Source: Candidatus Woesearchaeota archaeon (GTDB lineage: Archaea; Nanobdellota; Nanobdellia; Pacearchaeales; GW2011-AR1). From it: a DNA stretch of 64,000 nt. A model generated the notes under the pieces. The model searched no databases and was not told the DNA's origin. It saw only the letters and a list, made by a program, of their open reading frames with translations. Positions 24,280 to 52,160 of the stretch are shown piece by piece. The stretch's first letter is position 1; every line of letters begins with the position of its first letter. The translations under genes were made by a program, and so were the position numbers. The stretch lies in the NCBI GenBank assembly GCA_964601175.1, contig CAZRMJ010000003.1, positions 27-64,026 on the forward strand, in the 5' to 3' direction.

Positions 24280-24280
24280 T

Positions 24281-35060: not shown

Positions 35061-35093
35061 TTTAGTCAATTGTACATTTTTTAAGTTTTTATT

Positions 35094-35151
35094 AAAAAAA
35101 CTCAATCAAAAATGGACTATTTAGTTATTTGCCAAGTTTCGAAATAACTAA
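35094..35151 (-). terminator. Hairpin plus T-tract at the end of the giant-protein gene string
   Basis: A 10-bp stem TTAGTTATTT/AAATAACTAA (35121-35151) starts 5 nt after the stop of the 198-aa gene. The minus strand then has T5 and T7 runs (35094-35100). Confidence 0.45.
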
Positions 35152-35155
35152 ACAA

Positions 35156-35752
35156 TCACTTCAACCTAACTTTAGCCGAGCGAGAAGACATAACCTGATT
35201 CTTCATCATTTTTCTACATTTGAAGAACAATATTATTAGCAGTATAATTGCAGTAATAACTAAAGCTATTGCCATAAACGCAAGTAAATGTTTGCTAAAC
35301 GCGACAGACCATCTATCGTACAAAATTATTGTTTGACTTGTAGCCCCCAATAGTTCTTGAGTCTCAGAATCTGAAACTTCAATTTCCAAATTAATGGAGT
35401 TTCCTTTTATTGATTCTGGAATTTCCAATTTTGATATAGTTGATAAATAAGTGTCCAATGCTACAGTTTGAGATCTAACTTTTTGCTTTACATTATTCTC
35501 AACGAAATAATAACTGAGAGTAATATCTCTATCACCTACACTTGCCGGTTGGTATATTTTAATTTCTACTATTACCAAAGATCCTCTTGCAATTGGATAT
35601 GAAGGTTCAAGTTTTGCAGAAACTATTACTTGGTCATTGGAAACTAATCCAGAAATCTTACTTTTTATTCCGACAAAAATTAAAAATAATAAGATAATTA
35701 AAACTAGGATGATCTGAAATATTCTATAACTAGAATTACCTCTAATTTTCAT
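35156..35752 (-). CDS. Surface protein with N-terminal anchor, one Ig-like domain and a C-terminal TM
   Basis: The domain SLVIVEIKIYQPASVGDRDITLSYYF...TVALDTYLSTISKLEIPE...INLEIEV resembles the last domain of the giant and of the 338-aa protein. ATG at 35752, whereas the track start is TTG. Confidence 0.6.
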   Translation of the reverse strand: MKIRGNSSYRIFQIILVLIILLFLIFVGIKSKISGLVSNDQVIVSAKLEPSYPIARGSLVIVEIKIYQPASVGDRDITLSYYFVENNVKQKVRSQTVALDTYLSTISKLEIPESIKGNSINLEIEVSDSETQELLGATSQTIILYDRWSVAFSKHLLAFMAIALVITAIILLIILFFKCRKMMKNQVMSSRSAKVRLK

Positions 35753-35773
35753 CAATTAGTATAGTAAAGACAG

Positions 35774-38700
35774 CTATTTAAAATTGGCTCTTTTGAAGTT
35801 CTGAATATTTCTCATATAATATCCAGATCTACTGAAAAAGAAACCATTTCGCTTAAGATACATTACTACGTAAACTATTCCAGCCACTAATATCAAGATT
35901 ATCAAAGCATATACTGCATAGGTTTTGTAGCTAATTATTGAAAACCATGTACTTGCATTTACTATGCTTTCTTCATTATCATTTTCTCTACTTGGATATA
36001 CTGCTTTAACGTTTAGTAAGTAAACTCCACGAGTAAGTTCTTTTGGAACATTAATTGTTTTAAGTAAACTTGTTTGTGTGCTTACCGCTACTGTTTCATG
36101 TTCAATATCATATATCTGTCCAGTACTTGTATCTTCTATTGAATAATAGACCACTACATCAACTTCGCCTATGTCTCCTAAGTTTAATATTTGTACGCTT
36201 GCAAGTATTTTCCCGCCAGGACTTATTATTCTTCCATCTAATATTTCTGTGTTTATATCGAACAATGCGCCTTTAGAAGATGCGTCTATTGCAACTAACA
36301 CTTCATCTTCAAATCCGGGTGCCTTTGCAACTATCTTTCCAATATAAAGCTCAGGAGCAGCATCTTCTCTTACAATGAAATCTACTTTAACTGTTTTTGA
36401 CATTCCTGGTTCAAGAGTTATTTCAGTTTCAGATAACTTCAATTGATCCTTAAGTCCAGATACTTCAAGATTCAAAGCAATATTTCTATTACCCGTATTT
36501 TCAATTACTAAGTCCCTTGTTGAAGTTTGTCCTTGTTTAAGAGAAACTTTCATATTTTGAGGGCTAAACAACACTTCTTTCAGCCTTTCTGCTCCTAAAA
36601 GCGGAGTTAGTTCTATGGTTGCAGAATTCCTTAAACTATTTATTGAATTTAGTTTAACTGAAAGGTCGTCTAAGCCATCTTTATTGAAATCAAAGTTCTT
36701 AGAGTCTACAATATCAAGAGTAAAGACTTCAGGAGTACTTTCCATTGTGAATATTGCTTTTGAACCATCATATCCGTTAAATGTTATATGGTGTATCTGA
36801 CCATTTCCTATGGAAAAGCTCTTCCTATTAGAAGAGAATATTTCCCTATTTGTTCCTCTAATTATTCTACCAAATGAATTATCGCTTCCGAAAGAAGATC
36901 CGCCGCTTCCTCCGCCGGATCCGCCATTTCCATTAGAACCTCCGTTTCCGCCATTTCCAGATCCTGTAGGAAGATTCTTATCAGAGAATAAACCAAAGAA
37001 TAATCTCATTAAGTCAGAGAATCCTTTAAGTATATGACTATTTCTTTGAGTAGAATTTGTCAAACTTAATCTCTGCACCAATTCTACTAAATATTGTGTA
37101 AGTCCTCCAACTCTTGAAGCTATAGATTGAAGAACTATCTGCTGAGTTTGTAGCCTAAATATTCTTCCAAATCTTGTCACAGAATTAGTAATGGAAATAT
37201 CTTGTATGGCAACTCTTACTCTACTTGCTTGTTTATACAGCGAATCTGACAAACCGATATTTGTTGAACTAATTCTAAAGATTCCCGAGAATCTTGAAGC
37301 ATAATCTTCTAGACTTATTTCATTAGATATCTCTCTGTTTGCTCCAAAGAATCTTTCTAAATTAAAGTTGAAGCTTATCAAATTAGTTGGTAATCTGAAT
37401 ATATTTCCAATTCTTTCAGAAGCTAAATTTAATCCAACTATTTGCGAATTAATTCTATTTGCTCCAAGATTACCTCTAAATCCTAAGTCAAGAGTAAATG
37501 AATCATCCGTAGATCTAAACATATAAGCTAATCTATTGACGGCGTTATCTATTGTTAATCTTTGAGTATTGATTCTAAACAATCCACTAAATCTAGTGTT
37601 GCTTTCTGCAACATTCACATTTATGGAACTTGTTCTAATTAGATTTGCCAATCTGTTGATTGTTTCATTAAGATTGATTCTTTCTATAAGTTGAATTACA
37701 TACTTTAATATTTCAGCACCTAAATTGGTTCCGGCTCTAACATTAACAACTTGTGTAGGGGTCCTAAACATTCCCAAGAATCTGTTTACAGAATCACTCA
37801 AACCTATAGAATTAGAAGCAATTCTGTTAGCTCCATAAGTTCTTGAAATTCCTAAGCTAAATCCTAAAGAATCTTGGTTTACTCTAAATATTCCAGAATA
37901 TTTGCTATTACTATTATCAACCGCTATAGTTTGAGAGTTTATTCTGAATAGTCCAAGTAATCTTGTTACAGCGTTATCTAGTGTAAGAGTTTGGGCATTT
38001 ACTTTAAACAATCCACTAAATCTAGTATTTTTCTCATTTACATTTATACCTTGTTGATTAATTCTAAACAAACTAGCAAGTCTGGTTAGACTATTATCTA
38101 TTGTAAGTCTCTGAGTGTTCAATCTAAACAATCCAGAGAATCTTGTATTGGTATCGTCAATAGTCAAAGTTTGAGAGTTTATTCTGAATAATCCTGAGAA
38201 TCTTGAGTTACTATTTACCAAGTTTAATTGTTGACCCATTATTCTAAATAATCCTCCAAATCTAGTATTGCTTTCTGTAATTCCGATATTATTGTTATTG
38301 ATTCTGAATATTCCTGCAATTCTATTTGCTATACTATTCAGACTCATGTCCTGTATGTTTGCCCTAAGCCCAATATAGTTTCTATTTGATACTGCGTCAA
38401 TTGAAAGCAAGTTAGTTGGTATTTTGAAAATGCCTGCTAATCTTTCAACGGAATTATTTAAGTTAAGCTGTTGAACTAATTCTACAAGGTACTTTAGAAT
38501 ATTCTGAACATTAATAAGAACTTCATTTACATTTATGACTTGTAATTGTATCCTGAATAATCCTAATAACCTGTAACTATTTTCATCTAGACTTATAGTT
38601 TGTTGATTTATTCTAAATAATCCTGAGAACTTATTAGCATTTTCACCGAAAACAAATTCTTGATTGTTAATTCTAAATAATCCTCCGAATCTAGTATTGC

Positions 38701-41700
38701 TTTCTGTAATTCCAATATTATTGTTATTAATTCTGAATATTCCCAAGAATCTATTTACAGAATCACTCAAACCTATAGAATTAGAAGCAATTCTGTTTGC
38801 TCCATAAGTTCTTGAAATTCCTAAGCTAAATCCTAAAGAATCTTGGTTTACTCTAAATATTCCGCTATATCTTGTATTAGCATTATCAACAGCTATAGTT
38901 TGTGAGTTTATTCTGAATAGTCCAAGTAATCTTGTTACAGCGTTATCTATAGTCAATCTTTGAGTGTTGATTCTGAATAACCCACCAAATCGAGTATTAC
39001 TTTCTCCCAGGGTTAAACTATCAGAATTAGTCTTGAATAATCCCCTAAATTTACCAAATTGACTATTAAGGAGAATCTCTAAGTTGCTATTCTTAAATAA
39101 ATCCCCAATTCTATAATTTGAACCATTTATTCTTAAAATACCGGTCAAATTTATAGAATAAGTATTGACTAAATTAAGTGCGCTAAATGTAATATTTGTA
39201 GTAGAGTTTAAGTTATTGCTTGAATCCCAACAAAAGTATTTTGCAACGTAACTTCCATCAGAAATTGTAGAATTTGTAGCATTAAAGTCCCTATTGCCAT
39301 TATTTTGCATGGTATAATTTAATTTACCATTAGTTAATGTAAAGTTACATGCGCTTCCATCTTTGTTCAAGGTTACATTAAATAAGATCGGAGGATTCAA
39401 GGTATCGTTAGCAGGGTTATTTATTGTAACTTGAGGAGGAGTTATATCATTATAAATGACTGTAAAGTTAGTTGAATTCATAGCGCGATTACTTGCATTA
39501 TCAAAAGTAAGATAATTCCAAACATATGTCCCGGAATAAGGCAAGGTCACTGTAATATTGGTACTATCTGCCAATCCAACTATTGTAGCATCAGTAGTGT
39601 TAATAATATCTCCAGTAGAATTCCAAACATATAAAGTAGTATTATGAAGTGCGAAATTATCGCTAAAGGTGGCATTAAAACTAACCACAGGATCTGTTAC
39701 AGTGGTGCCATTAGAAGGTGCATTCAAATTCGTAACTGGAGGAATATTCTGTTCATAAACTACATCTGCGGACATGAAGTCAACACCAAATCCACCAGTA
39801 GCTGTGCTATTCTGATATGCCATCAATCTAAATTTACTATTAGACACAAAATGATCCATTTCGGAGACAGATAAATTATAGGTAGTAGTGTTCAATACTC
39901 CTATTGCTCCAGCACTAAAGTTTACTCTTCTCCAACCTCCAGAAGTAAAGTTCCATAAAGCCATACCCTTCATATGATTAGCTACTGTTGTATTTGATCT
40001 AACTGTAAGAAATATTCTTGTTATTGCTTCATTAGAAGGTACTGTGAAGTTAACAAATACAAAAGTATCTAAAGATGCACTTTCCCCTCTTGGCCTAAAT
40101 GCAATATTATTTGAAGTATTAAGGCCATTTATGCCACTTGAAGTAAGAAGAGACGTTCTTTGTATTGCAAATCCTCCAGTATCTGTATGAGTTCCGTTTG
40201 AAGCTCGTTGAGAAACTGCATTAGGAACCAATGTTTCAGAGACTAATGGATCTACAATATTATCGAATTGCAAATCTCCTCCTGAAATAAGCAAATCAAA
40301 AACACTTTGAGATCTACTACCTAAATTAGTCAAGAAAACAGTATTGTACTGATTATCAGTTATTGAAGTAAAGTTGACTATCTGATTCGTTCCATCTTCT
40401 TCATATACTGTAATCATTGGAGTTCCAGAAATAGTTCTTGGGTATATAGTAATATCATTAGAAGAAGTAAGATTCTTGTTAAAAGCAATTCTAACATAAT
40501 GCGTATCTGAAATAGTTTCGCTCCATATACCATCTATTTGTCTAACTGAATCAAAAATATTAGAAATAATAGTTCTATTTTCATCTAAGTGTAAAGCCTT
40601 TGTCAATTCTACAAATCCAAATGCAGAATTTCCAGAAGGCAAGGTAATATTATATTCTTGTCCAGGAGTTAGATCATGAAGAAATGGTTCCCATCCACTA
40701 GAACAACTTTGATCTGTAAAGTTCCATGAAGGACAATTCTTCAGCTCAGAACTTTGAGCTGTAAAGAAAACAGTATAATTAGTGAAATTATCCAATAAAG
40801 GATCAACGCTAAATACACTAAATAGGTTGTCTAAACTCGAAACACTATCCAATCTTGCAACTTCTAAAGATGTATCTGTAATATTTTGTTCTGTCAAATT
40901 TATATTGTCAAATCTTATTCTATCAACATAATCTATATCTAAAGGAAATACCCTTATTGTATAAGTAGAGTTTATCGGAATTATTGCAGTTAAGTTATCT
41001 CCAGTTTCATTATATACAAAAGAATTAGCAACTTCATCATATATTGTAACTTTAGCATTAATAGGATTCCCATTAGAATCTAAAACAGTCCCATTTACTA
41101 AAGCATATTGTTGAACAACTGAAAAGCTAACATTAGAAGTATAATTAGCATTACCATTAACGTCTTGTGCGTAGACTTGGAAAGTATAATCTCCAAAATC
41201 AAGATCTCCGCTACTAGCATTAAAGTTAAGCCCATCTTCAGAGCTCATTGAAATATTAGTTAAACCATTATCTAATGTATAATTTGCTACTCCATTTTCA
41301 TTTAATGAAATATTAAATGAAAGAGGCAGATCTAAAAGCCTAGAATATTCAGCATTATTTTCAGGAGAGTTAATGGTTACTAATGGAGCATTAGCATCTG
41401 AAGTCATACAAGTAACATTAACAAAATCAAAACCTGCTTCTTCATTTAAATCATTTTTACTTGCAGTTACTCTTATTTTGAAGTTGTTATTTAATCCAAC
41501 TCCAGAAGTAATATTATATGTCTCTGTATCCCAGGTGTTATCTTCACAAGCCTGACCATTAGTACATGAAAAGATGTTTACAAAATTCCCGCCTGAATTT
41601 GTAACATTTACATAATAAAATTCACCATTATCAAAAGAACTATCAACATATCTAGAATAAGTAAGAATGCATTCGCTATAAGGTGTTAAATCAAGAGAAT

Positions 41701-42355
41701 TTGTTAATTGTAACGCATTAATCGCTCCATTTTCAGCACAAGCACATTGAGCCCCATCAGCACAATTGGTAGGACATAAATTAACGTTAGACCATCCAGT
41801 CCCAGAAACTTCTGTCCAATGAGTCCAAGAAATTCCATCCTCAAAACTGTCGGAAAATACTTCTGTAACTGTTGGATCTATTATATGATCAAATTTAATT
41901 GATCCATTAATAACTCTTAAATCAAATTGATCTTGAGATTTTATTAAATCCCTTAGAAAGATCTTATTATATGAATCACTTGTTATGTCCCTAAAAGAGG
42001 CAATAACTTTATCCTTATCTTTTTCATAAACCTCTATTATTGGATTTCCATTAGTTACTATTGGATATATAGTAATATCATCAACAGAAGTAAGATTCTT
42101 CTCAAATGTAACTCTTACATATTCTCCATCATTTATTTCATTACTCCAAATATTATCTTTTGATTTAATAGAATCATAGATCTTTTCAACAAAGTTCCTA
42201 TTAACATCAAGATGTTCAGCGTTTACTATTTGTATCGAATTAAATCTATTTTGTTCATTATTTAAAAAGAGAATTAATTTATGAAGATTAATTAAAATTA
42301 ATATTCCCAGAGTTAAAACTAAAACGCCTATCAAGATAACCTTTTTATTATTCAT
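35774..42355 (-). CDS. Giant (~2193 aa) N-X-S/T-rich surface protein: N-terminal anchor, two HLD..FDHIIDP modules, Ig-like domains, 20-residue repeat array, Gly/Asn/Ser linker, two Ig-like domains, C-terminal TM
   Basis: Uninterrupted 6.6-kb ORF. The ATG at 42355 follows GGAGGG and overlaps the upstream wHTH stop as ATGA, whereas the track start at 42373 is TTG. The C-terminal TM is YAVYALIILILVAGIVYVVMY. Confidence 0.85.
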   Translation of the reverse strand: MNNKKVILIGVLVLTLGILILINLHKLILFLNNEQNRFNSIQIVNAEHLDVNRNFVEKIYDSIKSKDNIWSNEINDGEYVRVTFEKNLTSVDDITIYPIVTNGNPIIEVYEKDKDKVIASFRDITSDSYNKIFLRDLIKSQDQFDLRVINGSIKFDHIIDPTVTEVFSDSFEDGISWTHWTEVSGTGWSNVNLCPTNCADGAQCACAENGAINALQLTNSLDLTPYSECILTYSRYVDSSFDNGEFYYVNVTNSGGNFVNIFSCTNGQACEDNTWDTETYNITSGVGLNNNFKIRVTASKNDLNEEAGFDFVNVTCMTSDANAPLVTINSPENNAEYSRLLDLPLSFNISLNENGVANYTLDNGLTNISMSSEDGLNFNASSGDLDFGDYTFQVYAQDVNGNANYTSNVSFSVVQQYALVNGTVLDSNGNPINAKVTIYDEVANSFVYNETGDNLTAIIPINSTYTIRVFPLDIDYVDRIRFDNINLTEQNITDTSLEVARLDSVSSLDNLFSVFSVDPLLDNFTNYTVFFTAQSSELKNCPSWNFTDQSCSSGWEPFLHDLTPGQEYNITLPSGNSAFGFVELTKALHLDENRTIISNIFDSVRQIDGIWSETISDTHYVRIAFNKNLTSSNDITIYPRTISGTPMITVYEEDGTNQIVNFTSITDNQYNTVFLTNLGSRSQSVFDLLISGGDLQFDNIVDPLVSETLVPNAVSQRASNGTHTDTGGFAIQRTSLLTSSGINGLNTSNNIAFRPRGESASLDTFVFVNFTVPSNEAITRIFLTVRSNTTVANHMKGMALWNFTSGGWRRVNFSAGAIGVLNTTTYNLSVSEMDHFVSNSKFRLMAYQNSTATGGFGVDFMSADVVYEQNIPPVTNLNAPSNGTTVTDPVVSFNATFSDNFALHNTTLYVWNSTGDIINTTDATIVGLADSTNITVTLPYSGTYVWNYLTFDNASNRAMNSTNFTVIYNDITPPQVTINNPANDTLNPPILFNVTLNKDGSACNFTLTNGKLNYTMQNNGNRDFNATNSTISDGSYVAKYFCWDSSNNLNSTTNITFSALNLVNTYSINLTGILRINGSNYRIGDLFKNSNLEILLNSQFGKFRGLFKTNSDSLTLGESNTRFGGLFRINTQRLTIDNAVTRLLGLFRINSQTIAVDNANTRYSGIFRVNQDSLGFSLGISRTYGANRIASNSIGLSDSVNRFLGIFRINNNNIGITESNTRFGGLFRINNQEFVFGENANKFSGLFRINQQTISLDENSYRLLGLFRIQLQVINVNEVLINVQNILKYLVELVQQLNLNNSVERLAGIFKIPTNLLSIDAVSNRNYIGLRANIQDMSLNSIANRIAGIFRINNNNIGITESNTRFGGLFRIMGQQLNLVNSNSRFSGLFRINSQTLTIDDTNTRFSGLFRLNTQRLTIDNSLTRLASLFRINQQGINVNEKNTRFSGLFKVNAQTLTLDNAVTRLLGLFRINSQTIAVDNSNSKYSGIFRVNQDSLGFSLGISRTYGANRIASNSIGLSDSVNRFLGMFRTPTQVVNVRAGTNLGAEILKYVIQLIERINLNETINRLANLIRTSSINVNVAESNTRFSGLFRINTQRLTIDNAVNRLAYMFRSTDDSFTLDLGFRGNLGANRINSQIVGLNLASERIGNIFRLPTNLISFNFNLERFFGANREISNEISLEDYASRFSGIFRISSTNIGLSDSLYKQASRVRVAIQDISITNSVTRFGRIFRLQTQQIVLQSIASRVGGLTQYLVELVQRLSLTNSTQRNSHILKGFSDLMRLFFGLFSDKNLPTGSGNGGNGGSNGNGGSGGGSGGSSFGSDNSFGRIIRGTNREIFSSNRKSFSIGNGQIHHITFNGYDGSKAIFTMESTPEVFTLDIVDSKNFDFNKDGLDDLSVKLNSINSLRNSATIELTPLLGAERLKEVLFSPQNMKVSLKQGQTSTRDLVIENTGNRNIALNLEVSGLKDQLKLSETEITLEPGMSKTVKVDFIVREDAAPELYIGKIVAKAPGFEDEVLVAIDASSKGALFDINTEILDGRIISPGGKILASVQILNLGDIGEVDVVVYYSIEDTSTGQIYDIEHETVAVSTQTSLLKTINVPKELTRGVYLLNVKAVYPSRENDNEESIVNASTWFSIISYKTYAVYALIILILVAGIVYVVMYLKRNGFFFSRSGYYMRNIQNFKRANFK
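37771..37980 (-). repeat. Near-identical 210-nt intragenic duplicate, copy A
   Basis: Matches 38740-38949 almost base for base, apart from a ~25-nt divergent patch. The offset is 969 nt. Confidence 0.85.
38740..38949 (-). repeat. Near-identical 210-nt intragenic duplicate, copy B
   Basis: See 37771-37980. A shorter duplicate also occurs (about 38250-38320 vs 38680-38745). Confidence 0.85.
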
Positions 42356-42564
42356 GCCTTCCCTCCTTTCCAATAATGCAATTTAGCAATACCTACAGGC
42401 CTTATTCTAATAAGATCAGCACCTTTTAATTCAGCTAAAGCAACAGATACGGTATTTCGAGAGATACTTAATTTTTGTGCTATTTCTACTACTGTAAGAC
42501 CTTCGGTGTCCTTTCTAAGTAGATTCGCCACTAAATCTTTTTTTGTTTTTACTATTTCTTTCAT
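42352..42564 (-). CDS. 70-aa winged-helix DNA-binding protein (MarR/ArsR-like fold)
   Basis: LTVVEIAQKLSISRNTVSVALAELKGADLIRIRPVG is an HTH plus wing. Its TGA overlaps the giant gene's ATG. Confidence 0.7.
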   Translation of the reverse strand: MKEIVKTKKDLVANLLRKDTEGLTVVEIAQKLSISRNTVSVALAELKGADLIRIRPVGIAKLHYWKGGKA

Positions 42565-42565
42565 A

Positions 42566-42605
42566 GTGCACTAATGATTACTTTTAATGTTGAGCATTAA
42601 TGCAC
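42566..42605. promoter_or_regulatory. Imperfect 11-bp inverted repeat between the TATA-like box and the wHTH start (candidate operator or leader hairpin)
   Basis: GTGCACTAATG (42566-42576) and CATTAATGCAC (42595-42605), with one mismatch and an 18-nt spacer. ATATATAAA on the minus strand lies at about 42622-42631. Confidence 0.35.
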
Positions 42606-42751
42606 AATAAAATAAATCAGGGTTTATATATCTTTGTTAAAAATCGTAAAAAACTAAAATTTACAATCAAAGTTAATAATAAATAACAAATCAAATTCAA
42701 TAATAGGCATAAAAAACCAAGAAATTACAATAATAAAAAAATCAAAATAAA

Positions 42752-43303
42752 TTAACTTATCATTAATGTCCAGTTTATTGTAAGCTGGTCATTTGTCTGT
42801 AAAGTAACAAGAGTGAATGTATTTCCTGCAAACACTGAACCAGTTTGATTACTCAATCTTGTAGAGTTCACTTCTATACTATCACATGTTGATGTAAATG
42901 TCTTTGAAACTGACCAGTTACCAGGAGCATTATTCAAAACAGCATAAGTTCCAGCATTACTATTCAATCCACAATTAATATATGTATTAAAAGTTTCAGA
43001 TGCTGCCGCAACAGGTCCAGCACATCCAGCAGTAGCATTACATAATGAAATATTCAATATTGCTCCAACAACTCCAGTACCTAATGCATTTCTAGTCAAA
43101 TTCTTCCCATTATCGTAAAGCAAATTATGATCGCAACTTACTACTTCCCCATTTTTGTAAACACAAACATAACCTTTGTAATGAAGAACCGAAGAATCTG
43201 AACTTGAACCTTGAAGACCATCACTTAAAAGATATCCAAATGATAAAGCAAATAATATAGAAGCCACAAAGGCAAAAACAATTTGTCCTCTTTTTACCAT
43301 CAT
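42752..43303 (-). CDS. Type IV pilin-like protein with class III signal peptide
   Basis: M(M)VKRGQ followed directly by the hydrophobic IVFAFVASILFALSFGYLL, i.e. [KR]G then Q plus a TM helix, the archaeal prepilin-peptidase pattern. The track start at 43342 is TTG. The body is beta-rich and N-X-S/T-rich. Confidence 0.6.
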   Translation of the reverse strand: MMVKRGQIVFAFVASILFALSFGYLLSDGLQGSSSDSSVLHYKGYVCVYKNGEVVSCDHNLLYDNGKNLTRNALGTGVVGAILNISLCNATAGCAGPVAAASETFNTYINCGLNSNAGTYAVLNNAPGNWSVSKTFTSTCDSIEVNSTRLSNQTGSVFAGNTFTLVTLQTNDQLTINWTLMIS

Positions 43304-43387
43304 AACATGATAAAAAAGTCTCAAGTATTTAAATCTTTTCAATTTTTTATTTTAAAGTTCCAATAAATAATATTATTTTCTAGAATT

Positions 43388-44569
43388 TTATCTATGCTTA
43401 ACTCTCTTTCTTAACAAAAGGAACCATGTAAAATTAAGCAATACAAGAACTGCTATTGCAATTACTAAAATTGTATTGAAACTTCCCCCAGATTTGCTAG
43501 ATTTTACGACGTAACCAACTCCAACAACAGAAATATCATTTTCAGAAACATCTAAAGTCAATTGTTTCTGAATAGACTTTTCTCCAAAATGAATAAATGC
43601 CTTCGCATCATAAGATCCAGCACTAACACCTTCAGTATCCCAAAATGCAACAAGCAATTGACTTCCAAATGGTTCAAAATCATATGTTGCAGACTTAAAT
43701 TCTGCCATAACATCGCCACTTTTATCAAAAACCTGCATTAAGATATAAGCATCACTGATCGGAGTACCTAAATTGTTATTAACAAGAAATTCAAATTTAG
43801 CAATTTGACCCAAACTAAAGTCGTTTACTTCAACATTTTTAAGCTCAAGAGTATCTGATCCGATAGAAAATTCTTTTCTCAAGTCAATAGTAGCTTCATC
43901 ATAAACAATAGTGGCAAAAACCCTGTAAATTCCAGGAACATTATTTGAAGGAGCCCATTGAGCTGCTAATTCTTTTCTTTCACCTTTAGATAATGGAACT
44001 TCTTCAGTTACCAATGAAGCGATTTTACTATTAGATGAATTAAATATATCCAAAAAAGCCTTAGTATGTGCAATGTTTAAATTTCCCTTACTTACTACAG
44101 GGATAACGAAACTAGCGAGACTATCGTTTGAAACACTTATACTCAAAGCAGATTCTACATATTTCCCCGGATAAGGCACATCAATTACAGCCTTTGTGAT
44201 TACACCCACAATAGAATTTATGTAAGTCTTCCCTGATCCAACATTATTTGGAACTTCAGTTATAAGAATGTCTATACTATGACTTCCAGGAGATAACTTA
44301 GGAGGAGTTTCCAAAGAGTAATATATCCTAACACTTTTTACTTCAGGAGTTAATGAAATAGTATAATTAGAAAGAGATAAAAAATCTTTCAAGTCTCCTT
44401 GAGGTTCTAAAACAATATCTACTTTTTTATTGTCTGAGTTAATAACTTCGAAATAAGAGGTTTGCTCAGATCCAGGATCATATCCAAATATATGCTGTGC
44501 CGGAGTTATTGCAAATGCAGAAGAAAATGGAATTAAAATCAAAAAAATTAAAATAGAATAAGCTTTCAT
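43388..44569 (-). CDS. Multi-Ig-like surface protein with C-terminal TM anchor (paralogue of 25401-26522)
   Basis: Signal peptide ending SSAFA, shared motifs AITPA, SPGSH and VPYPGKY, and a C-terminal TM plus basic tail LLRKRVKHR. Confidence 0.7.
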   Translation of the reverse strand: MKAYSILIFLILIPFSSAFAITPAQHIFGYDPGSEQTSYFEVINSDNKKVDIVLEPQGDLKDFLSLSNYTISLTPEVKSVRIYYSLETPPKLSPGSHSIDILITEVPNNVGSGKTYINSIVGVITKAVIDVPYPGKYVESALSISVSNDSLASFVIPVVSKGNLNIAHTKAFLDIFNSSNSKIASLVTEEVPLSKGERKELAAQWAPSNNVPGIYRVFATIVYDEATIDLRKEFSIGSDTLELKNVEVNDFSLGQIAKFEFLVNNNLGTPISDAYILMQVFDKSGDVMAEFKSATYDFEPFGSQLLVAFWDTEGVSAGSYDAKAFIHFGEKSIQKQLTLDVSENDISVVGVGYVVKSSKSGGSFNTILVIAIAVLVLLNFTWFLLLRKRVKHR

Positions 44570-45018
44570 TTTTCCACAACACCACCTTTAACTTCTGAAG
44601 AATTTACCAGAGAACCTATGTTATAGGTATCCACATGTATCGGGAATTTATTTACATTAAAGATTCCAACAGAATTATCTGTAGTTCTTTTAACTTGAAT
44701 ATTTAAAACGATTTCAGAAGAAAGTTCCCTAACTTGACCAGAAGACTCGAAAAAGGATTTAATATAATATCTTCCAGGATCAAGATTAAAAACATCTCCG
44801 ATAAACAAAGTTCTAGGAGAATCAAATTGCAAATTATCATCCACAATTACATAATCCGTGTCTGAAGGAATCTCAAACATCAGAGAACTAGCCCCCTCAG
44901 AAAGAGGCCCTGTAACTAAAGGTTGAGAGTAACCAATATAAATGAAAGCAAGTAATAACAATCCAGCTAAAAGAATAGAGTCTATTATCAACAAATATTT
45001 CTTGTTTTTATTTTCCAT
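44566..45018 (-). CDS. Signal-anchored small beta-rich protein
   Basis: TM LLIIDSILLAGLLLLAFIYIGY followed by a ~110-aa beta-rich domain (LDPGRYYIKSF). ATGA overlap with the downstream gene. Confidence 0.55.
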   Translation of the reverse strand: MENKNKKYLLIIDSILLAGLLLLAFIYIGYSQPLVTGPLSEGASSLMFEIPSDTDYVIVDDNLQFDSPRTLFIGDVFNLDPGRYYIKSFFESSGQVRELSSEIVLNIQVKRTTDNSVGIFNVNKFPIHVDTYNIGSLVNSSEVKGGVVEK

Positions 45019-45019
45019 C

Positions 45020-45118
45020 TTATTGATTTATGTTTGATACCCCCAAAACATCCCTTAACATAATATTAGAAGACTCGACATTTATATCTATTTCTGCTCC
45101 ATATCTACAGTTCATCAT
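45020..45118 (-). CDS. Possible 32-aa micro-ORF wedged between the giant gene and the 150-aa gene
   Basis: GGAGGT (the last codons of the giant) lies 5 nt upstream of ATGATG. The ORF MMNCRYGAEIDINVESSNIMLRDVLGVSNINQ ends 1 nt before the next ATG. Confidence 0.25.
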   Translation of the reverse strand: MMNCRYGAEIDINVESSNIMLRDVLGVSNINQ

Positions 45119-45119
45119 T

Positions 45120-48100
45120 CTAACCTCCAACTCCTGCAGCATAAGTATCTCCCGTACCTAAAACTATAGTGAATGTAATAGTAGAAGATCTAGATCCTGG
45201 ATTTTCCGAAGAAGGAACTGTAACGTTGATATCTATCTCTGCACTATCTGAAGAGTACGTATAATTAAGATCTGTAATTATCTTAGTATTATTTGAAGTT
45301 TGAGGGACAGGGAAATAAGTAGTTTTAGAAGTTGGCCATTTAAATGAACCATTTTCAGAAATTCCATTTGTAGTAACATTATCTGCTTTAGCTAAATAAT
45401 AAGATGAAGGATTTGTTAAACTCTGCCAAAGATCAGTAGCTTGAATAGAAATATCGACGAGAGAGTTACCTTGATTAACCAATATAATCGGATTAGGAGA
45501 ATTATCTACAGTATCATTGGATGCAAGATAATTCAAATTACCGAAGTCTATCGAACTTATGTTCATTATAGTATCTAAATAAGCCTGGACGCTAAGCCTA
45601 TATTTAGGAGAATAAGAACCATAATTAACCCCATCATCAGAAGCAGAAGCACTCCAAATATAACGATCATTATTATCAATCAAACAATTGAATCCCAAGA
45701 ATAGCGTAGAAATATCAAATGTATTAATAAATTCAGGCTCATAAATATTTGCTCCATTGAAACTAGAATCTGTGCATACTGAAGAACCAGAAAGACTAAT
45801 ATTGAATCTGGAAGAGACTATCGAATCACCATCATCATCACTAATTGCAATAGAAAATATTTGAGAAGTCCTATTAAAAGTAACAGAGCTATTTATTGGA
45901 GATATCAAACTTACATTTGGAAGACTATTAAGAATAGTTAAATTACTTGAATTAACTGAAAAAGAAGAAAATCCATCATTTAATATCAATTGGGCAGACC
46001 AGTTCTGACCTTTAGTTGTGTTTCCATAACCCAAAGAAGCAATAAATGTAGTGCCATTAGCATAACTAGAATTATAAGGTATAGATAGATGTCTAACACT
46101 ATTATTATACCAAACTACTGTAACATTTATAGTATTATTGTTCTGATCCAACAGCGTTGTCCTTATATTCAAATTATCAAGAGTTTTATTTGTTCCTAAA
46201 GTAGAATTAATTACTAATGAAGTTCCATTATAAGGAGCAACATTTGTAGATACAGTTATAGTTCTAGTTTCAGTGGAATTAATATTTCCATAGATATCTT
46301 GAGCATAAGCTTTGAAATTGTGAGTTCCAGAAGAAACGCTAGAATAATCTATTAAGCTATATCTATCTGATTGGTTTTCATAAAGCTGTGCTATTTCAGT
46401 CTGAGACAAAGATCTATTGAAAAACATAACATTATCGATACTCCCATTGAAGTAATTTAGGGTCTGTGATCCTCCTTGACCTATAGTTACACTTCCAGAT
46501 ATAACATTACCAGGTGAAAAAGTAAATGGAGTACCATTAACTCCATTTTTGTATAATTTGGAATTAGAACCATTAGCAACTAAAGCAATTTGACTCCAAG
46601 AGTTTGCTGAAACTTGTAATTGAGTATCGGCAGCAGGAGGAGAAACAACAAAAACATTTCCAGTTGAATTTATTCCCAATCTATACTGGAAGTCTCCAAA
46701 AGCATCAGAATCTTCCCTAGAAAGAACATCTCCCCCAAGAGTAAAAGGCTTTATCCATGCGACAATAGTAAAACGATCTAAAACATCTAATGGAGCAGCT
46801 GGACTATTAGCAAGATCTGGATCTCCAAGATCCAAGTAATCTCCATTTCCATCAAAAGAAAATGAACCTCTAAACCTACCGCTTGAGTTAGGTGCAGCAT
46901 TTCCGTTAATTGTACCATTTATAACGCCAAGATAATCATAAACGATAGTAGGACTATAATCATCCATTCTCCACCATCCAACTAAAGATTTATCAAAATC
47001 AACGAAAACGCTAGTATTACTCAAATCAGAAACACTAACGTTTATTGAAAAACTACTAGATTGAGTACTAGCATTAACCGGAGTAGGTCCAGTAAAATTA
47101 ATAGTTGGAGGAATACCATCTGAAACCGTAAATGTTCTAGTCTCGCTAATTTTTTGATTTCCAGCATCATCTAAACAAGTAACATTCCAATAATGGTCGC
47201 TAATAGAAAATCCGCTAACACTTACATTAACAAGAGTATTGTTTGAAGAACCAATATTAGATTTGTTAACTGAATTATCTATAGTCAAATTACAGTTAAG
47301 GGAAGTATCTATAGCATCTGTAGCAGTCCAATTAAATGATATTGGAATTCCAGATGAACTAGTACTTGCATTAGAAGGAGCATTCAAAGTGATATTTGGA
47401 GCAGTAGAATCAATATAGAAAGTATATATTGGAGTTGCATTAAGAGCCCCAGTATCTCCGCTAACATTAGCCCTTAAGAAATATACTCCTTCATTTAGCC
47501 TGTATGCATTTAATATTTCTGAAGCAGTTAAAGTTCTATTATAAATAACAAGATCGTCAATTAATCCGGGAAAATAACCAGTAGCAATAGGGGCAGAGCC
47601 AACTCTTAAAGTCCCACTTATATTTGGAAGATAAGCCGAGTTTGTATTTAAAGTACTAGAAGAGTTAAGATAACCATTAACATAAGTAGCAGCATCTCCT
47701 GTAGCTCTATCAAAAGTAACTGCATAATGATACCAAGTAATATTTGGCATAAATATTGCACTAGTGCCAATTGCTACATTAGATGTGCCATTACCTGTAT
47801 CGAAAGAAATAGTTTTAGTCGAGTTTAAAAACTCGACATTATAACTTCTATTGACAAATGTACCGACTCCAGATCTAGAAACTGGAGATGGCCAACTATA
47901 AATAGTATCATTAAGGGATAAATTAAACCAAAACATAATAGTTATCTGCCCAGTAAAGTATGGAGACGCAAGCAAAGTATTTTCTGAAAATGATATCACT
48001 TGGCTTCGATTGCCTCTAAAAGCATTTCCTAAACCAGTTATACTTTTTTGTCTACCTCCTTCAGCATTAGTCACGGTACCATTAAATTGACCGGTCGCGA

Positions 48101-51100
48101 AATCCGTTACAGTAGTTCTATTTTCTCCATAATAAGAATTATTATCAAAATGATACAATAAGATCATTCCATTAGGATCATAATCTAAAGGAGGGATACT
48201 ATAATTGAAAGATATATTTCCGGCAACAACAGGAAAACTATCGGTAGAATAAACAAGATGATCATTTTTGAAAGGAGAACTTTTACTTATGTAAAAATAA
48301 GAATAATTATAATCGCCCCCTAGATAATAACTATCATTTACATATAAGGTAATATTAACTGCTCTAACTGAAGTAGAAGAACCATTAATTGGAGAAGTTA
48401 AATTAAATGTGCCTATAGGCAAATCATCAACTCCTGAAATAGTAGGAAGTTCTATTACTTGCCAAGTTCCAGTTTGAACGTTAGAAGTAGTAGCCCTGGT
48501 TAGATTTATAGTATTTGTACTAGAAATATTAATAGTCCCCATAGAATTTTGCCAACTAGTACCAGTTCCAGTATTGTTGAACCAAAGAGTAGCAAATGAC
48601 CTATTCAACTCAACAGCATTTATAGAAATAGAGTTACTAGTAAATACTTGTTGACCTGTTTGAACTTTAGCCCCTGGAGTAGAAATTACATACCATTTAG
48701 CCATAACATTACCATTACCCGAAGCAGCAAGCCTAGAAAACCTAAAAGTGGTCTGATTAAGAGGTTCTACAGTTACACCTACATATCCTAAACCTATAGC
48801 CGTATCATTAGTAGTTTCTGAAAAATAATACCAAGTACTTCCTAAATCAACAGGATTAACATTTGCATAAGATGGAGAGGCAGTAGTTCCTACATTAGAA
48901 ATTTCTCCTTGCTGAATAGTAGACCCATCATTAAATTCTGTAACAAAATAAGAAACATTACCTGCACATGCTCCAGAAGAATCTCTTCTCAATTCAAGAT
49001 TTGTAGAGCTAGTTATATTTGCAATCCAGAATATTTCATGACCATCTGCATTAGAAGCTGAAGCACAACTAGCAAAATTAATAAAAGCAACGGATCTAGA
49101 AACATTAACTGAATTAATAGTTACGTTAAAAGATTTATCGGTAAGACTATAATTCTTACTACCATTCTGAACATTAATATAATTTCCTTCTATGACATAC
49201 CAATCAAATATAGCTCCAGCTTCTGTACTTACCTTTACAATATTAAACCTAGTCCCATTTACCCATTCTGCATAAGCCCCAGAATCCGCAGGAACTTCTT
49301 CAGCTACAGGAGCTCTCCTAGTAAGTAAAATAAATGCCCTAGAGTTATTAACTGATCTTGACAAATTAATCGGAGTTATTTGACTAGCACCGAGCACATT
49401 TTCACCATGCTCTGTCCACCAAGAAGGATTAGGAGACAAAGGATCAATTATATGATCGAATTGAATATCTCCTCCAGTAACATAAAGATCAAAAGTATCT
49501 TGAGATCCTTGAAGGCCAGATAAAATTACTCTGTTATAGCTTTCATTTTCAATAGATGAAAACTGAGCAATTTGAACAGTTTGATTATATTCATAGACAA
49601 TTATTGATGGACTTCCAGAAATAATTCTAGGATACAAGGTGATATCATTTTTAGAAGTAAGATTATGTTCAAAAGTAACTCTCACATAATGTCCCCCTGG
49701 AATAGTTTCGCTCCAAACACCATCAAGAGCTTTAGTTTCATTATAGATATTGGAAACAAAAATCCTACTCTGATCTAAATGTTGAGCATTAGTTATAACA
49801 ATTATATTGAAAGTCTGATTACTAAGGTGTGGAGCGATCCACTCAACATAGTCATAATAACCGTCGCCATCAGTATCATTAGCATAATAAATATCAAGCA
49901 ACGAGTTATTCTCGACCCATTCTATTTTTATATCTGCAAGATTATTTATCCTAAGCCCATTAGATAAATTAGTAAATATCAAAACATTTTCATAGTGAAC
50001 ATCATTAGGGCTTGAAACGTGAACTATTTTTTTATTACCTTCATCTTCTTCAGTAGAAGTAGGTGCATCAGTATAATATTCAATTTCGACAAGATCATCA
50101 GTTTGATCAATTTCAAGAGATATTTCCGAAGTAGCACTTGCGGATTGATCTTCAACAACTCTTCCAGTTAAAGCAAAAAACTCAAGTATCTTTGAAATAA
50201 AAGATTTTTTAGAAACGCCTATATTAGCAACAACTCCTCCAGTTATTGGAGAAAGAGAATTATCAGAAACACTTTCACCATTCAATTTTATTTTATTAAC
50301 TGTAATATTATCTGCACTTGAAGGAACTTCGATAATTAAACTAGAAGTATCATTTGCATCAACTTCTATAGTCTTTTTCCATTTAACTGGCTTGCCAATA
50401 ACTGCAGAAAATTGTTCAACAGTAACATTAGTTGATGATTCTACTATTAATGGCAACGTATCATTAATCAAACTAGTTTGATTAGTAACCGTAAAATTAG
50501 AAACAATAGTGGAATTGCTTAAAGTATTATTAGAAGGAATAGTCTGATTTGAAGTTGATCCGTTTAAATCTGGTGAAACATTAGAATCTTCTACTACTCC
50601 TGAGGATCCAGAATCAGAAGAAGAATCAATTTCAGAATTATCTGATATGATAACTATGTTTTTAGAATCTTGAGAGATTACATCATTTCCATAACTTAAA
50701 ACTATAGATATCTCAGAATTTTCTGTAGCAATTAAACCAAAGCTTTCAAGATTAAGAGATATTGTTTCCTTTTTATTTCCAGCAAAATCTTCCCCATAAC
50801 CTTCCTGATCAATTGAATAGCTAGTTGAAACAGTTACCTCTCCATTTTTAATTTTAATTTTTACAGAATTATCATCTAGCATTTCCCCATTATAATAAAC
50901 ACTTCCAGAAACTAATTCAACAGTTTCACCATCATTTAATGAATATGTAAATTCTTTATCCTTAGAAACTCTTCCAGAAATAGTATCTTCAGAGATAACT
51001 GATCCTGTGATAGCTGACTGATCTGAATTTTCTGAAGAACTAGTGGAATCAGATGGAGTCTCCGAAGAAGAGGTTTCCAAATCTGAAGATTGTGAAGATC

Positions 51101-51734
51101 CCGTGTCAGCAGAAACTCCTTCAACATTCTGAGTATTTTCAGAAGTTTCAGACGAAACACTATTTTCAGAATTAGAATTACCAGAAGATTTAGAATCCTT
51201 AACTATGCGAAGATCAAAATCGACAAAAGGATATTCTTTATTTGTTCCAATCAAACCATAACCATTACCGTAACCTTCAATAGAAACACTTTTAGAATAA
51301 AAATTACCTTGTACAGCAGGTTCATTTACTAAAGAAGAAAGAACAAAATCCTTAGTAATATTTCCATATTTAACAGTCACAATAGAATCGGAAGGTATTA
51401 GTTCTCCCTGAGCTAAATTTAAATTAAACTTGCCATTTATAATATCTCCAACATTATAAGTATCATGAACTTCCAAAGAAACATTTCCAGTAATATTCAA
51501 AGGAATTAAAAACAAAGCAAGAGAAAAAAACGCTACATAAAAAACAAAAAGCAATTTATGTTTTGAAAAAAAGTTATTTTCAATATCTGAACCAAGATAT
51601 TTTGTTACAATTTTTCCATTAATTCTTTTAGTCTCATAATAATATGGACCAAAACGTTTGCCATCTTTATACGTATATTTTTTATGCACCACTTTCAGTT
51701 CTCTTACACTCTTTTTTAGATAAAAGAAAAGCAA
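45120..51734 (-). CDS. Giant (~2190-2204 aa) surface protein: basic cytoplasmic N-terminus, TM anchor, Ser-rich region, one HLD..FDHIIDP module, two LamG/ConA-like domains, Ig-like domains, C-terminal TasA-like domain
   Basis: Uninterrupted 6.6-kb ORF with no in-frame ATG near the 5' end. The track start is TTG at 51734. GTG at 51692 or 51689 fits better with the TATA-like TTATAAATA at about 51739-51747. LamG-like signatures LLYHFDNN...ITIMFWFNL...LVIYNRTLTASEI and LVGWWRMDD...FTIVAWIKP...VMFFNRSLSQTEI. Confidence 0.85.
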   Translation of the reverse strand: MLFFYLKKSVRELKVVHKKYTYKDGKRFGPYYYETKRINGKIVTKYLGSDIENNFFSKHKLLFVFYVAFFSLALFLIPLNITGNVSLEVHDTYNVGDIINGKFNLNLAQGELIPSDSIVTVKYGNITKDFVLSSLVNEPAVQGNFYSKSVSIEGYGNGYGLIGTNKEYPFVDFDLRIVKDSKSSGNSNSENSVSSETSENTQNVEGVSADTGSSQSSDLETSSSETPSDSTSSSENSDQSAITGSVISEDTISGRVSKDKEFTYSLNDGETVELVSGSVYYNGEMLDDNSVKIKIKNGEVTVSTSYSIDQEGYGEDFAGNKKETISLNLESFGLIATENSEISIVLSYGNDVISQDSKNIVIISDNSEIDSSSDSGSSGVVEDSNVSPDLNGSTSNQTIPSNNTLSNSTIVSNFTVTNQTSLINDTLPLIVESSTNVTVEQFSAVIGKPVKWKKTIEVDANDTSSLIIEVPSSADNITVNKIKLNGESVSDNSLSPITGGVVANIGVSKKSFISKILEFFALTGRVVEDQSASATSEISLEIDQTDDLVEIEYYTDAPTSTEEDEGNKKIVHVSSPNDVHYENVLIFTNLSNGLRINNLADIKIEWVENNSLLDIYYANDTDGDGYYDYVEWIAPHLSNQTFNIIVITNAQHLDQSRIFVSNIYNETKALDGVWSETIPGGHYVRVTFEHNLTSKNDITLYPRIISGSPSIIVYEYNQTVQIAQFSSIENESYNRVILSGLQGSQDTFDLYVTGGDIQFDHIIDPLSPNPSWWTEHGENVLGASQITPINLSRSVNNSRAFILLTRRAPVAEEVPADSGAYAEWVNGTRFNIVKVSTEAGAIFDWYVIEGNYINVQNGSKNYSLTDKSFNVTINSVNVSRSVAFINFASCASASNADGHEIFWIANITSSTNLELRRDSSGACAGNVSYFVTEFNDGSTIQQGEISNVGTTASPSYANVNPVDLGSTWYYFSETTNDTAIGLGYVGVTVEPLNQTTFRFSRLAASGNGNVMAKWYVISTPGAKVQTGQQVFTSNSISINAVELNRSFATLWFNNTGTGTSWQNSMGTINISSTNTINLTRATTSNVQTGTWQVIELPTISGVDDLPIGTFNLTSPINGSSTSVRAVNITLYVNDSYYLGGDYNYSYFYISKSSPFKNDHLVYSTDSFPVVAGNISFNYSIPPLDYDPNGMILLYHFDNNSYYGENRTTVTDFATGQFNGTVTNAEGGRQKSITGLGNAFRGNRSQVISFSENTLLASPYFTGQITIMFWFNLSLNDTIYSWPSPVSRSGVGTFVNRSYNVEFLNSTKTISFDTGNGTSNVAIGTSAIFMPNITWYHYAVTFDRATGDAATYVNGYLNSSSTLNTNSAYLPNISGTLRVGSAPIATGYFPGLIDDLVIYNRTLTASEILNAYRLNEGVYFLRANVSGDTGALNATPIYTFYIDSTAPNITLNAPSNASTSSSGIPISFNWTATDAIDTSLNCNLTIDNSVNKSNIGSSNNTLVNVSVSGFSISDHYWNVTCLDDAGNQKISETRTFTVSDGIPPTINFTGPTPVNASTQSSSFSINVSVSDLSNTSVFVDFDKSLVGWWRMDDYSPTIVYDYLGVINGTINGNAAPNSSGRFRGSFSFDGNGDYLDLGDPDLANSPAAPLDVLDRFTIVAWIKPFTLGGDVLSREDSDAFGDFQYRLGINSTGNVFVVSPPAADTQLQVSANSWSQIALVANGSNSKLYKNGVNGTPFTFSPGNVISGSVTIGQGGSQTLNYFNGSIDNVMFFNRSLSQTEIAQLYENQSDRYSLIDYSSVSSGTHNFKAYAQDIYGNINSTETRTITVSTNVAPYNGTSLVINSTLGTNKTLDNLNIRTTLLDQNNNTINVTVVWYNNSVRHLSIPYNSSYANGTTFIASLGYGNTTKGQNWSAQLILNDGFSSFSVNSSNLTILNSLPNVSLISPINSSVTFNRTSQIFSIAISDDDGDSIVSSRFNISLSGSSVCTDSSFNGANIYEPEFINTFDISTLFLGFNCLIDNNDRYIWSASASDDGVNYGSYSPKYRLSVQAYLDTIMNISSIDFGNLNYLASNDTVDNSPNPIILVNQGNSLVDISIQATDLWQSLTNPSSYYLAKADNVTTNGISENGSFKWPTSKTTYFPVPQTSNNTKIITDLNYTYSSDSAEIDINVTVPSSENPGSRSSTITFTIVLGTGDTYAAGVGG

Positions 51735-51776: not shown

Positions 51777-52160
51777 TTACAACTTTTTTTGATAATCTGG
51801 AGAATATTTTAGCCTATAATGCAAACGTTCAATATTTTCATCACAAACAAAATCATGTTGCCTAAATCCGCCGCCAAAAGTTTTAGGAATATGCAACAAT
51901 TCATGAATAATAACCTTATCTTGATCTGACAAACTAAGCTTATCAAACTTTTCTAAAAACTCAATAGTGTAAAAAGCAGGGACTTTCATTCCTTTTTGCA
52001 TAACCTTGCCTATAGTGTGACATCTAGCAATAGTTCTTTTAGTACTAGATCCAAAACTTCTAAGACATTCAACCCTATCTAGATTTATATGGTCCATTTG
52101 AAGTTTGGCAACAATCTCAGAAAGTCTTGCTTTCAAATCTGGAGCATAATCATACCTCAT
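51777..52160 (-). CDS. Small HExxH metallopeptidase (SprT/WLM-like or COG4900-type)
   Basis: VIIHELLHIPKTFGGGFRQH. 127 aa. The family was assigned by eye. Confidence 0.65.
   Translation of the reverse strand: MRYDYAPDLKARLSEIVAKLQMDHINLDRVECLRSFGSSTKRTIARCHTIGKVMQKGMKVPAFYTIEFLEKFDKLSLSDQDKVIIHELLHIPKTFGGGFRQHDFVCDENIERLHYRLKYSPDYQKKL

Follow-up and report, generated by a model that had tools for sequence, protein, structure and literature searches.

Here we describe a string of surface-protein genes on the minus strand (35156-51734) of a 64,000-nucleotide stretch, hereafter the window, of contig CAZRMJ010000003.1 from a Candidatus Woesearchaeota archaeon. We propose, with a probability of roughly 60%, that it is a chromosomal surface-fibre or adhesin island of DPANN archaea (Pacearchaeota/Woesearchaeota type), in which an apparently autoregulated operon, consisting of a winged helix-turn-helix (wHTH) gene coupled to a giant surface-protein gene (giant 2) and a gene for a 199-residue protein, stands next to a set formed by a second giant (giant 1), proteins of 150 and 393 residues and the small membrane protein pil183. 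The locus is not a pilus locus and not a recognizable provirus. A same-strand surface-protein locus had been claimed by a first-pass annotation made from the letters alone, and our analysis supports it: the gene string is real, with every open reading frame (ORF) at the coordinates reported there.

The coupling of the wHTH to giant 2 is the most striking feature of the locus, and comparison of gene order indicates that it is genuine and general across DPANN lineages. The stop codon of the wHTH gene overlaps the ATG of giant 2 in an ATGA (42352-42355), with GGAGGG just ahead (42361-42366); direct reading of the sequence confirmed both elements, together with a second ATGA overlap in the string (44566-44569). 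The wHTH matched the Pfam families MarR_2 (29.9 bits, cut-off 27), HTH_20 (27.0 bits, cut-off 27) and HTH_11 (26.0 bits, cut-off 25), and a sequence search of the PDB with it gave no significant match. A homologue search returned 176 matches, and the 120 listed were 67-100% identical and 58-84 residues long; one with 96% identity is encoded on a contig of 674 kb. Distant homologues of the wHTH were 67-83% identical, compared with 38-70% for pil183, and the giants were less conserved than the wHTH. Our selection test compared the locus with strain L002, which is 95.6% identical (L numbers denote the loci compared); here the wHTH had no amino-acid change at all, with a ratio of nonsynonymous to synonymous divergence (dN/dS) of 0 at a synonymous divergence (dS) of 0.18.

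A lack of conservation in relatives would speak against this arrangement; on looking for it, we found instead that about 10 genomes keep the coupling of wHTH to giant. Among the loci of the pil183 family, a wHTH homologue overlaps or abuts the start of a giant in L012 (Aenigmatarchaeota), L026/27, L028 and L084. In five distant genomes (L106-L110) the stop codon of the wHTH overlaps or abuts the start of a large protein with a signal or transmembrane segment in all five cases. These coupled proteins have 1013, 2224, 260 followed by 1301, 2642 and 984 residues, and by BLAST they are without similarity to the giants of the window. Two of these genomes, L107 (8001-14872) and L110 (10001-13155), have in common the order of the upstream genes (OGG_N, ASCH, HhH-GPD, PEMT, AlaX-like) as well as the wHTH, whereas the protein coupled to it differs, with 2224 residues and no Pfam match in L107 and 984 residues with Big_9/NosD (beta-helix) matches in L110. 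The pair suggests that a surface gene may have been replaced behind a fixed regulator. Other small ORFs were seen at the start of giants adjacent to pil183 homologues: in L018 (9661-9855) a basic 64-residue ORF without a Pfam match, so that a reading by eye as a ribbon-helix-helix protein was not confirmed, and in L052 (12286-12447) a 53-residue ORF that contains a Cys-x2-Cys pair motif and matches zinc ribbons below threshold, each overlapping the start of the giant. Both may be non-homologous replacements of the wHTH.

As previously claimed, a TATA-like box (~42622-42633) lies in the 187-nt spacer ahead of the wHTH gene, as does an inverted repeat with the arms TTGTGCATTAATG (42595-42607) and CATTAGTGCAC (42566-42576). 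The repeat (42566-42607) sits between the TATA-like box and the wHTH ATG and ends two bases before the latter. A TATA-like box and, after it, a paired site of the form TTGTGCATTAATG ... CATTAxTGCACAA are present upstream of the wHTH in L026, L028, L106 and L109, and variant paired sites occur in L107 (GCGATATCGC core) and L108, which makes six other genomes in all. Archaeal transcription is expected to start about 25 nt past the centre of the TATA box. Because the first arm of the repeat covers this expected start site, we infer negative autoregulation: the wHTH, giant 2 and 199-residue genes would be transcribed as one operon from the TATA-box promoter, and the 70-residue wHTH, bound as a dimer to the repeat, would repress it. 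Giant 2 would be translated by re-initiation at the ATGA behind GGAGGG and, given that its translation would start there, its synthesis would be confined in time and place to that of the regulator. The hairpin and T-tracts beyond the 199-residue gene, also noted in the first pass, are present (fold of -17.3 kcal/mol, z = -3.7 against shuffles) and are likely the end of the transcription unit.

By a hydropathy scan, all six membrane proteins of the locus have an N-terminal membrane segment, and giant 2, the 393-residue protein and the 199-residue protein have a C-terminal one too. Giant 2 begins with an N-terminal half that contains the signal/transmembrane segment and two copies of a 125-residue "...DHIIDP" domain and is rich in N-X-S/T. 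About 35 strict copies of a 20-residue repeat follow (residues ~1100-1790, consensus SNTRFSGLFRINxQxLxI), and then a Gly/Ser linker, an immunoglobulin (Ig)-type region of the PapD/Cep192 kind (E = 3.6e-6), the C-terminal transmembrane segment and a basic tail. A strict 20-residue register is also visible in the giants of L012 and L020 when the register is displayed directly; a short hidden Markov model of the repeat gave no countable matches over the ORFs of the loci. Modelled from the single sequence with AlphaFold2 (AF2), the repeats were all-beta at a predicted local distance difference test (pLDDT) score of 46.8, and because a model of this score was not trusted, it was not taken into the fold search. 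Within the repeat region two 266-nt segments (37764-38029 and 38733-38998) are 88% identical, and four metagenome contigs of the same strain (L001, L003, L005 and L006) stop at window position 38945. As assemblies break in the giant 2 repeat, its copy number may vary between strains.

Giant 1 has a different architecture, with a basic cytoplasmic N-terminus of about 55 residues, one transmembrane segment (residues 59-83) and no C-terminal one. It carries Laminin_G_3 in two stretches (Pfam, E = 1.3e-34), of which giant 2 has none, and one copy of the 125-residue domain, which is 53% identical between the giants and gave no significant match in a PDB sequence search. Ahead of the transmembrane segment, its residues 1-55 (51570-51734) include the basic motif KKYTYKDGKRFGPYYYETKRINGKIVTKYLG, which we take to resemble the short beta-hairpin DNA-binding leaders of some transposases. 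Both giants had been described as dense in N-X-S/T sequons. This holds for giant 1 (103 observed, 49 expected from composition, z = 9.3) and for the N-terminal half of giant 2 (52 observed, 26 expected, z = 6.1), but not for the repeat rod of giant 2, where sequons are depleted.

Archaeal S-layer glycoproteins typically have C-terminal transmembrane anchors, heavy N-glycosylation sequons and Ig-type membrane-proximal domains. As the locus shows C-terminal anchors, an excess of sequons and an Ig-type membrane-proximal domain, and one wHTH locus elsewhere lies about 5 kb from an S_layer_C protein, the giants might be wall components rather than adhesins, with the small membrane proteins as their anchors. 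We find this rather doubtful. The giants behind the conserved wHTH are wholly different between genomes, even at the syntenic L107 and L110, and because they differ so completely, variable adhesins fit better than a lattice protein. Moreover, giant 1 carries lectin-type LamG domains and is the most diverged gene of the locus between strains (dS 0.26), and the domain scans gave no match to an S-layer family.

The testable ORFs of the locus behave as real genes: the comparison with L002 gave dN/dS values of 0.13 for giant 1, 0.04 for the 393-residue protein, 0.06 for pil183 and 0.36 for the N-terminal part of giant 2, which shows that all testable genes are under purifying selection. The flanks of the window carry housekeeping genes (EF-2, IleRS, Kae1, Obg-like GTPase and Ogg), the GC content is about 31% throughout (range 0.29-0.34) without compositional shift over the region, and the homologues of the locus proteins stem from Pacearchaeota, Woesearchaeota, 'Nanoarchaeota' and Aenigmatarchaeota assemblies. 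The window comes from an archaeal chromosome.

The first-pass annotation had read pil183 as a pilin-like protein with a class III signal. Its N-terminus, MMVKRG followed by QIVFAFVASILFALSF, matches the class III-type pattern [KR][GA][ALIFQMVED][ILMVTAS] (FlaFind-type). Read in this way, pil183 would be a prepilin that a PibD/EppA-type peptidase cuts after KRG and whose polymerisation depends on machinery encoded at another site, and the locus would specify a type IV pilus or pilin fibre. The M-M-V-K-R-G-Q start ahead of a hydrophobic helix fits this, as do the "helix plus beta-sandwich" outline of the pil183 model and the FlaI-/FlaJ-like genes found 1.5 kb downstream in L012. The wider family, however, makes it highly improbable. 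Of 224 full-length members of the family, 4 have a motif of the KRGQ kind. It is limited to the closest relatives and not conserved among even the nearest homologues, and the alignment shows no conserved Gly/Ala at the cleavage position. An N-terminal hydrophobic segment is present in 224 of the 228 full-length members examined; in the family alignment a variable basic N-terminus and this hydrophobic helix are followed by a well conserved Cys-containing domain ending in ...NDQLTINWT.

Linkage to assembly genes was also rare. The first pass had seen no pilus machinery in the window, and our homologue check likewise found no FlaI/FlaJ-type gene there. Across 76 dereplicated loci of the pil183 family, collected from species genomes, metagenomes and exact look-ups, FlaI/FlaJ-like genes lie near the family member in a single one (L012, Aenigmatarchaeota). 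In that locus, by labels given by eye, a FlaI-like ATPase and two FlaJ-like genes (12140-15656) come after a cluster of wHTH, giant, c1 (a small membrane protein described below), pil183 homologue and a 402-residue protein, and a small Cys-rich ORF, by eye like ribosomal protein S26e, stands ahead of them.

The predicted structure points elsewhere. In the AF2 model of pil183 (pLDDT 86.5) a helix (4-26) is joined by a disordered Ser-rich linker to a beta-sandwich, and the linker, by parting helix from domain, is a further point against a pilin. A Foldseek search of the model against 350,542 PDB chains gave one significant match, 9h4p_BD (E = 3e-5, probability 1.0), and no pilin or archaellin was among the matches. 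This is a 953-residue chain of the Haloferax tailed virus 1 (HFTV1) tail, matched as a tail chain and not as a named HFTV1 protein; the tail fibres of HFTV1 carry a trimeric 'base' (bioRxiv 10.1101/2024.12.09.627619). Against BFVD the model had 32 viral matches at E < 1e-3, down to 9e-8, with TM-scores of 0.5-0.7, including phage tail fibre, tail-collar fibre, Halogranum tailed virus and lipothrixvirus proteins. At the level of sequence, the Pfam family PF23140 (gp80, podophage fibre) matched weakly in 2 of 31 family members (best E = 7.7e-4) and not in the pil183 of the window. A PDB sequence search with the pil183 profile gave no significant match, a tblastn search of 50,697 phage records with pil183 found none, an IMG/VR scan gave one weak match, and PHROGs gave no useful or structural match for any protein of the locus.

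The family itself is large: a word-indexed search found 98 homologues and an exhaustive search 1,106 clusters at E <= 0.001, the best 150 of which have 123-250 residues, nearly all 160-250, and align over essentially their whole length. The homologues had no Pfam domain, and cluster look-up returned no name for them. We rejected pil183 as a pilin, since its motif is not conserved, its fold resembles virus tail fibres and linkage to assembly genes is all but absent. Judging from the model, it is a membrane protein resembling virus tail fibres, and the large family to which it belongs is uncharacterised. Between the pilus and adhesin options that the first-pass annotation had left open, an adhesin or surface-fibre locus fits and a type IV pilus locus does not.

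Members of the pil183 family occur in Pacearchaeota, Woesearchaeota and Aenigmatarchaeota and on virus- or plasmid-like contigs. Linkage to giants, here proteins of at least 800 residues that have a hydrophobic N-terminal segment, was counted in the 16 loci flanked by 3 kb or more on each side; in 10 of them a giant is found no more than 2.5 kb from the family member. Such giants of other genomes have an N-terminal signal or transmembrane segment, mostly a C-terminal transmembrane segment too, and several share the repeat region of giant 2 or the 125-residue domain. Two further small proteins accompany the family: c1 (~130 residues, two transmembrane segments) was found within 1.5 kb in 30 of 46 loci with enough upstream sequence, and c1 and c2 (~48 residues) usually stand directly upstream of the pil183 homologue in relatives, with c2 between c1 and it. 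In the window, c1 and c2 (23878-24421, plus strand) head a second same-strand cluster of surface-type genes (23878-29010, plus strand), which also contains a 67-residue transmembrane peptide, an N-terminally anchored 221-residue protein, a 373-residue paralogue of the 393-residue protein and three more signal/transmembrane proteins, two of them with below-threshold Ig-type Pfam matches (Cep192_D4, HYDIN/VesB-like). The 221-residue protein that follows c1–c2 was considered as a hidden pil183 homologue and rejected (hhalign probability 0.65%). A single inversion that parted c1–c2 from pil183 is speculative; an inverted repeat at 24431/42737 was dismissed as its mark, being AT-rich low complexity.

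The same c1–c2–pil–giant module is found on virus- or plasmid-like contigs that carry genes for a PrimPol-helicase with an intein, a T7-endonuclease-I-like protein, an SNF2 helicase and a PolB exonuclease, and long same-strand gene runs without Pfam match. No capsid-type gene was recognised on these contigs, and PHROGs gave no structural match for the neighbours in L104 and L105. Three samples yielded assemblies of one element of about 108.6 kb (L020, Ga0116241_10000382; L021, NODE_92 of ERZ795055; L030, Ga0209202_1000085). It encodes a PrimPol-helicase with an intein, a T7-endonuclease-I-like protein, an SNF2 helicase, an NrdD fragment, c1–c2–pil, a 2500-residue LamG giant and a DUF2793 giant, and as the three assemblies have different start points it is probably circular. 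A further pil183 homologue lies beside a 1160-residue repeat giant on a 12-kb contig (L017, DAOWJC010000046.1) that was binned with a Dehalococcoidia bacterium; probably either the contig was misbinned or the copy is a transferred or mobile one.

These contexts raise the question of whether the locus is a remnant of an integrated virus or mobile element, with pil183, c1, c2 and the giants as virion or element attachment proteins, that is, a tail-fibre-like module, rather than host genes. The match of pil183 to virus tail fibres, the homologous modules on contigs with virus- or plasmid-type genes, the runs of genes without Pfam match beside them and the three differently opened assemblies of the large element would all agree with this, as would a 'phage metallopeptidase' gene just upstream of giant 1 and a tRNA-Asp 2.3 kb downstream. 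Set against this, no integrase, capsid, portal or terminase was recognised among the window ORFs scanned, composition is steady and no tRNA-derived or other flanking attachment-site repeat was found. There was no structural PHROGs match for the window proteins or the neighbours on the elements and, in viral sequence collections, no match in deposited phage genomes and one weak one in IMG/VR. Several lineages have chromosomal copies flanked by housekeeping genes, and selection is strongly purifying. We consider an integrated element unlikely and prefer the island reading.

The coordinates of the features are collected in Table 1.

Table 1. Features of the locus and of its c1/c2 partners in the window.
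Feature	Coordinates	Strand	Remarks
Giant 1	45120-51734	minus	2204 residues; start placed at 51692 by metagenome gene callers
Small ORF	45020-45142	minus	40 residues, or 32 counted from ATG 45118
150-residue protein	44566-45018	minus	
393-residue protein	43388-44569	minus	
Pilin-like pil183	ORF 42752-43342; 42752-43303	minus	183 residues from MMVKRGQ for 42752-43303 (metagenome call)
wHTH–giant 2 promoter/putative operator	42566-42633	minus	
wHTH	42352-42564	minus	70 residues
Giant 2	35774-42355	minus	2193 residues from ATG
199-residue protein	35156-35755	minus	
Hairpin then T-tracts	35085-35160	minus	folding energy -17.3 kcal/mol
c1	23878-24279	plus	133 residues, two transmembrane segments, motif VSVxVxRxRWYGTI; E = 1.9e-37
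c2	24281-24421	plus	~46-residue membrane peptide, FYVLTGD...YFE motif; E = 2.9e-21

The small, possibly coding ORF behind giant 1 overlaps the end of the giant 1 gene, with its stop codon 1 nt ahead of the 150-residue gene. It was called by gene finders in near-identical contigs, and it gives no selection signal because it shows no variation relative to L002. The 150-residue protein has one N-terminal transmembrane segment, homologues only in near-identical strains and no family assignment in Pfam. The 393-residue protein, whose start overlaps the stop of the 150-residue gene in the ATGA mentioned above, has a signal-peptide-like N-terminus and a C-terminal transmembrane anchor and is paralogous to the 373-residue protein of the second cluster (25401-26522, E = 7e-21). 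Its earlier label as Ig-like was not confirmed by Pfam or by a PDB sequence search; among the locus proteins the only Ig-type match is that in the C-terminal part of giant 2. The 199-residue protein has transmembrane segments at both ends, and its ectodomain and anchor are homologous to the membrane-proximal module of giant 2 (E = 3e-5).

Upstream of giant 1, at a distance of 42 nt, a minus-strand gene (51777-52160) encodes a 127-residue 'putative phage metallopeptidase' (PF18894, E = 8e-17), and ahead of it are a small ORF (52181-52405) and the gene for the Obg-like GTPase. Rfam placed a tRNA at 56281-56408 on the plus strand (128 nt span, 46.7 bits), which ARAGORN did not report and which is probably an intron-containing archaeal tRNA. 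At 10288-15149 on the plus strand the gene of a 505-residue protein without Pfam match overlaps that of a 1115-residue NosD/right-handed beta-helix protein; this secreted-type pair shows that the genome has further big surface proteins outside the locus described here.

At the cell surface, giant 2 would be an exported protein with its C-terminal helix as membrane anchor; its roughly 35 repeats of twenty residues would form a projecting beta-rich rod, with the glycosylated N-terminal half at the tip. Giant 1 would be an N-terminally anchored, heavily glycosylated protein of the LamG lectin type. pil183 would be anchored in the membrane with an ectodomain of the fold seen in the tail-fibre base of tailed viruses and, as relatives encode it with c1 and c2 beside a gene resembling that of giant 2, its most likely part is in mounting, assembling or partnering such a protein at the cell surface. 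An attachment function is plausible, and the overall role would most likely be contact with other cells or surfaces.

Several points weigh against this reading of the locus. No pil183, c1 or c2 homologue lies within 8 kb of the five distant wHTH–giant cassettes (L106-L110), which suggests that the regulator cassette and the pil183 module are separable units joined here; the two parts may be functionally independent. c1 and c2 are 19 kb from pil183 and on the opposite strand, so that their partnership in this genome may be loose. The presence of the pil183 family on virus- or plasmid-like contigs also leaves room for a virus-related role. The model of the repeat rod is of low confidence and does not establish the geometry of a rod, and repression, coupling and attachment are all deduced from sequence.

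A bolder proposal, which we put forward tentatively and with a low chance of being right, takes the c1–c2–pil–giant module as the cellular counterpart of a virus tail-fibre apparatus. A membrane-anchored, probably trimeric base of pil183, with its two small membrane partners, would assemble or mount the giant rod at the DPANN cell surface, and DPANN chromosomes would exchange the module with circular elements of about 100 kb. The wHTH would then be more than a repressor, namely a dedicated expression factor that lets long variable surface genes be swapped behind a fixed control element.

DPANN archaea live attached to other cells, and both their means of attachment and the control of these are largely unknown. 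A nearly invariant small DNA-binding protein with a recognisable operator, placed before giants that differ across many genomes, offers a testable entry to surface regulation in uncultured DPANN, and the wHTH is a simple handle for finding variable surface genes in their genomes. The unannotated virus-fibre-like family (~1,100 clusters), common to cells and to virus- or plasmid-like elements, points to an exchange of attachment hardware. The case of pil183 also shows that "KRGQ plus a helix" is insufficient for calling a pilin. No description of the wHTH–giant cassette or of the pil183 family was found in the literature searched, which did not include the DPANN mobile-element study of Wu et al. 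2024 (cited in PMC12960796).

Compared with known systems, the regulator is closest to the small MarR/ArsR-type winged-helix repressors: like them, it passes the MarR_2 threshold, and its own operon bears a palindrome after the TATA box and ahead of the start codon. Full-length MarR has about 140 residues, with dimerisation helices and a ligand pocket, whereas the wHTH of the window has 70 and no dimerisation or ligand domain. It also differs from these repressors by its unusual conservation (67-83% across orders) and, in the loci looked up, by its translational coupling to a giant, highly variable surface-protein gene. With archaeal type IV pilins and archaellins, the pil183 of the window has in common a short basic N-terminus, a Gly, a hydrophobic helix and a small beta-rich globular part, but its family is without the conserved cleavage motif and without a match to solved pilins, has a linker after the helix and no linked assembly genes. 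In virus tail fibres, the N-terminal base or tail-collar domain has the same beta-sandwich fold as the pil183 model; in contrast to these, pil183 is a stand-alone domain of about 140 residues behind a transmembrane helix, not the N-terminus of a long fibre polypeptide, and it is encoded in cellular chromosomes, in the window with housekeeping flanks.

The giants finally recall the LamG/ConA-like giant surface proteins of DPANN archaea and their viruses, for which host-cell attachment has been proposed and which have already been reported on predicted DPANN viruses (PMC11310336). Those proteins are likewise very large, secreted or membrane-anchored and LamG-bearing, belong to small-genome archaea and also occur on putative mobile elements. 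What sets the present locus apart is that giant 2 lacks LamG and has in its place a novel, strict 20-residue repeat rod, and that the giants belong with their own wHTH regulator, a membrane protein resembling virus fibres and a pair of small membrane proteins to a conserved cassette.

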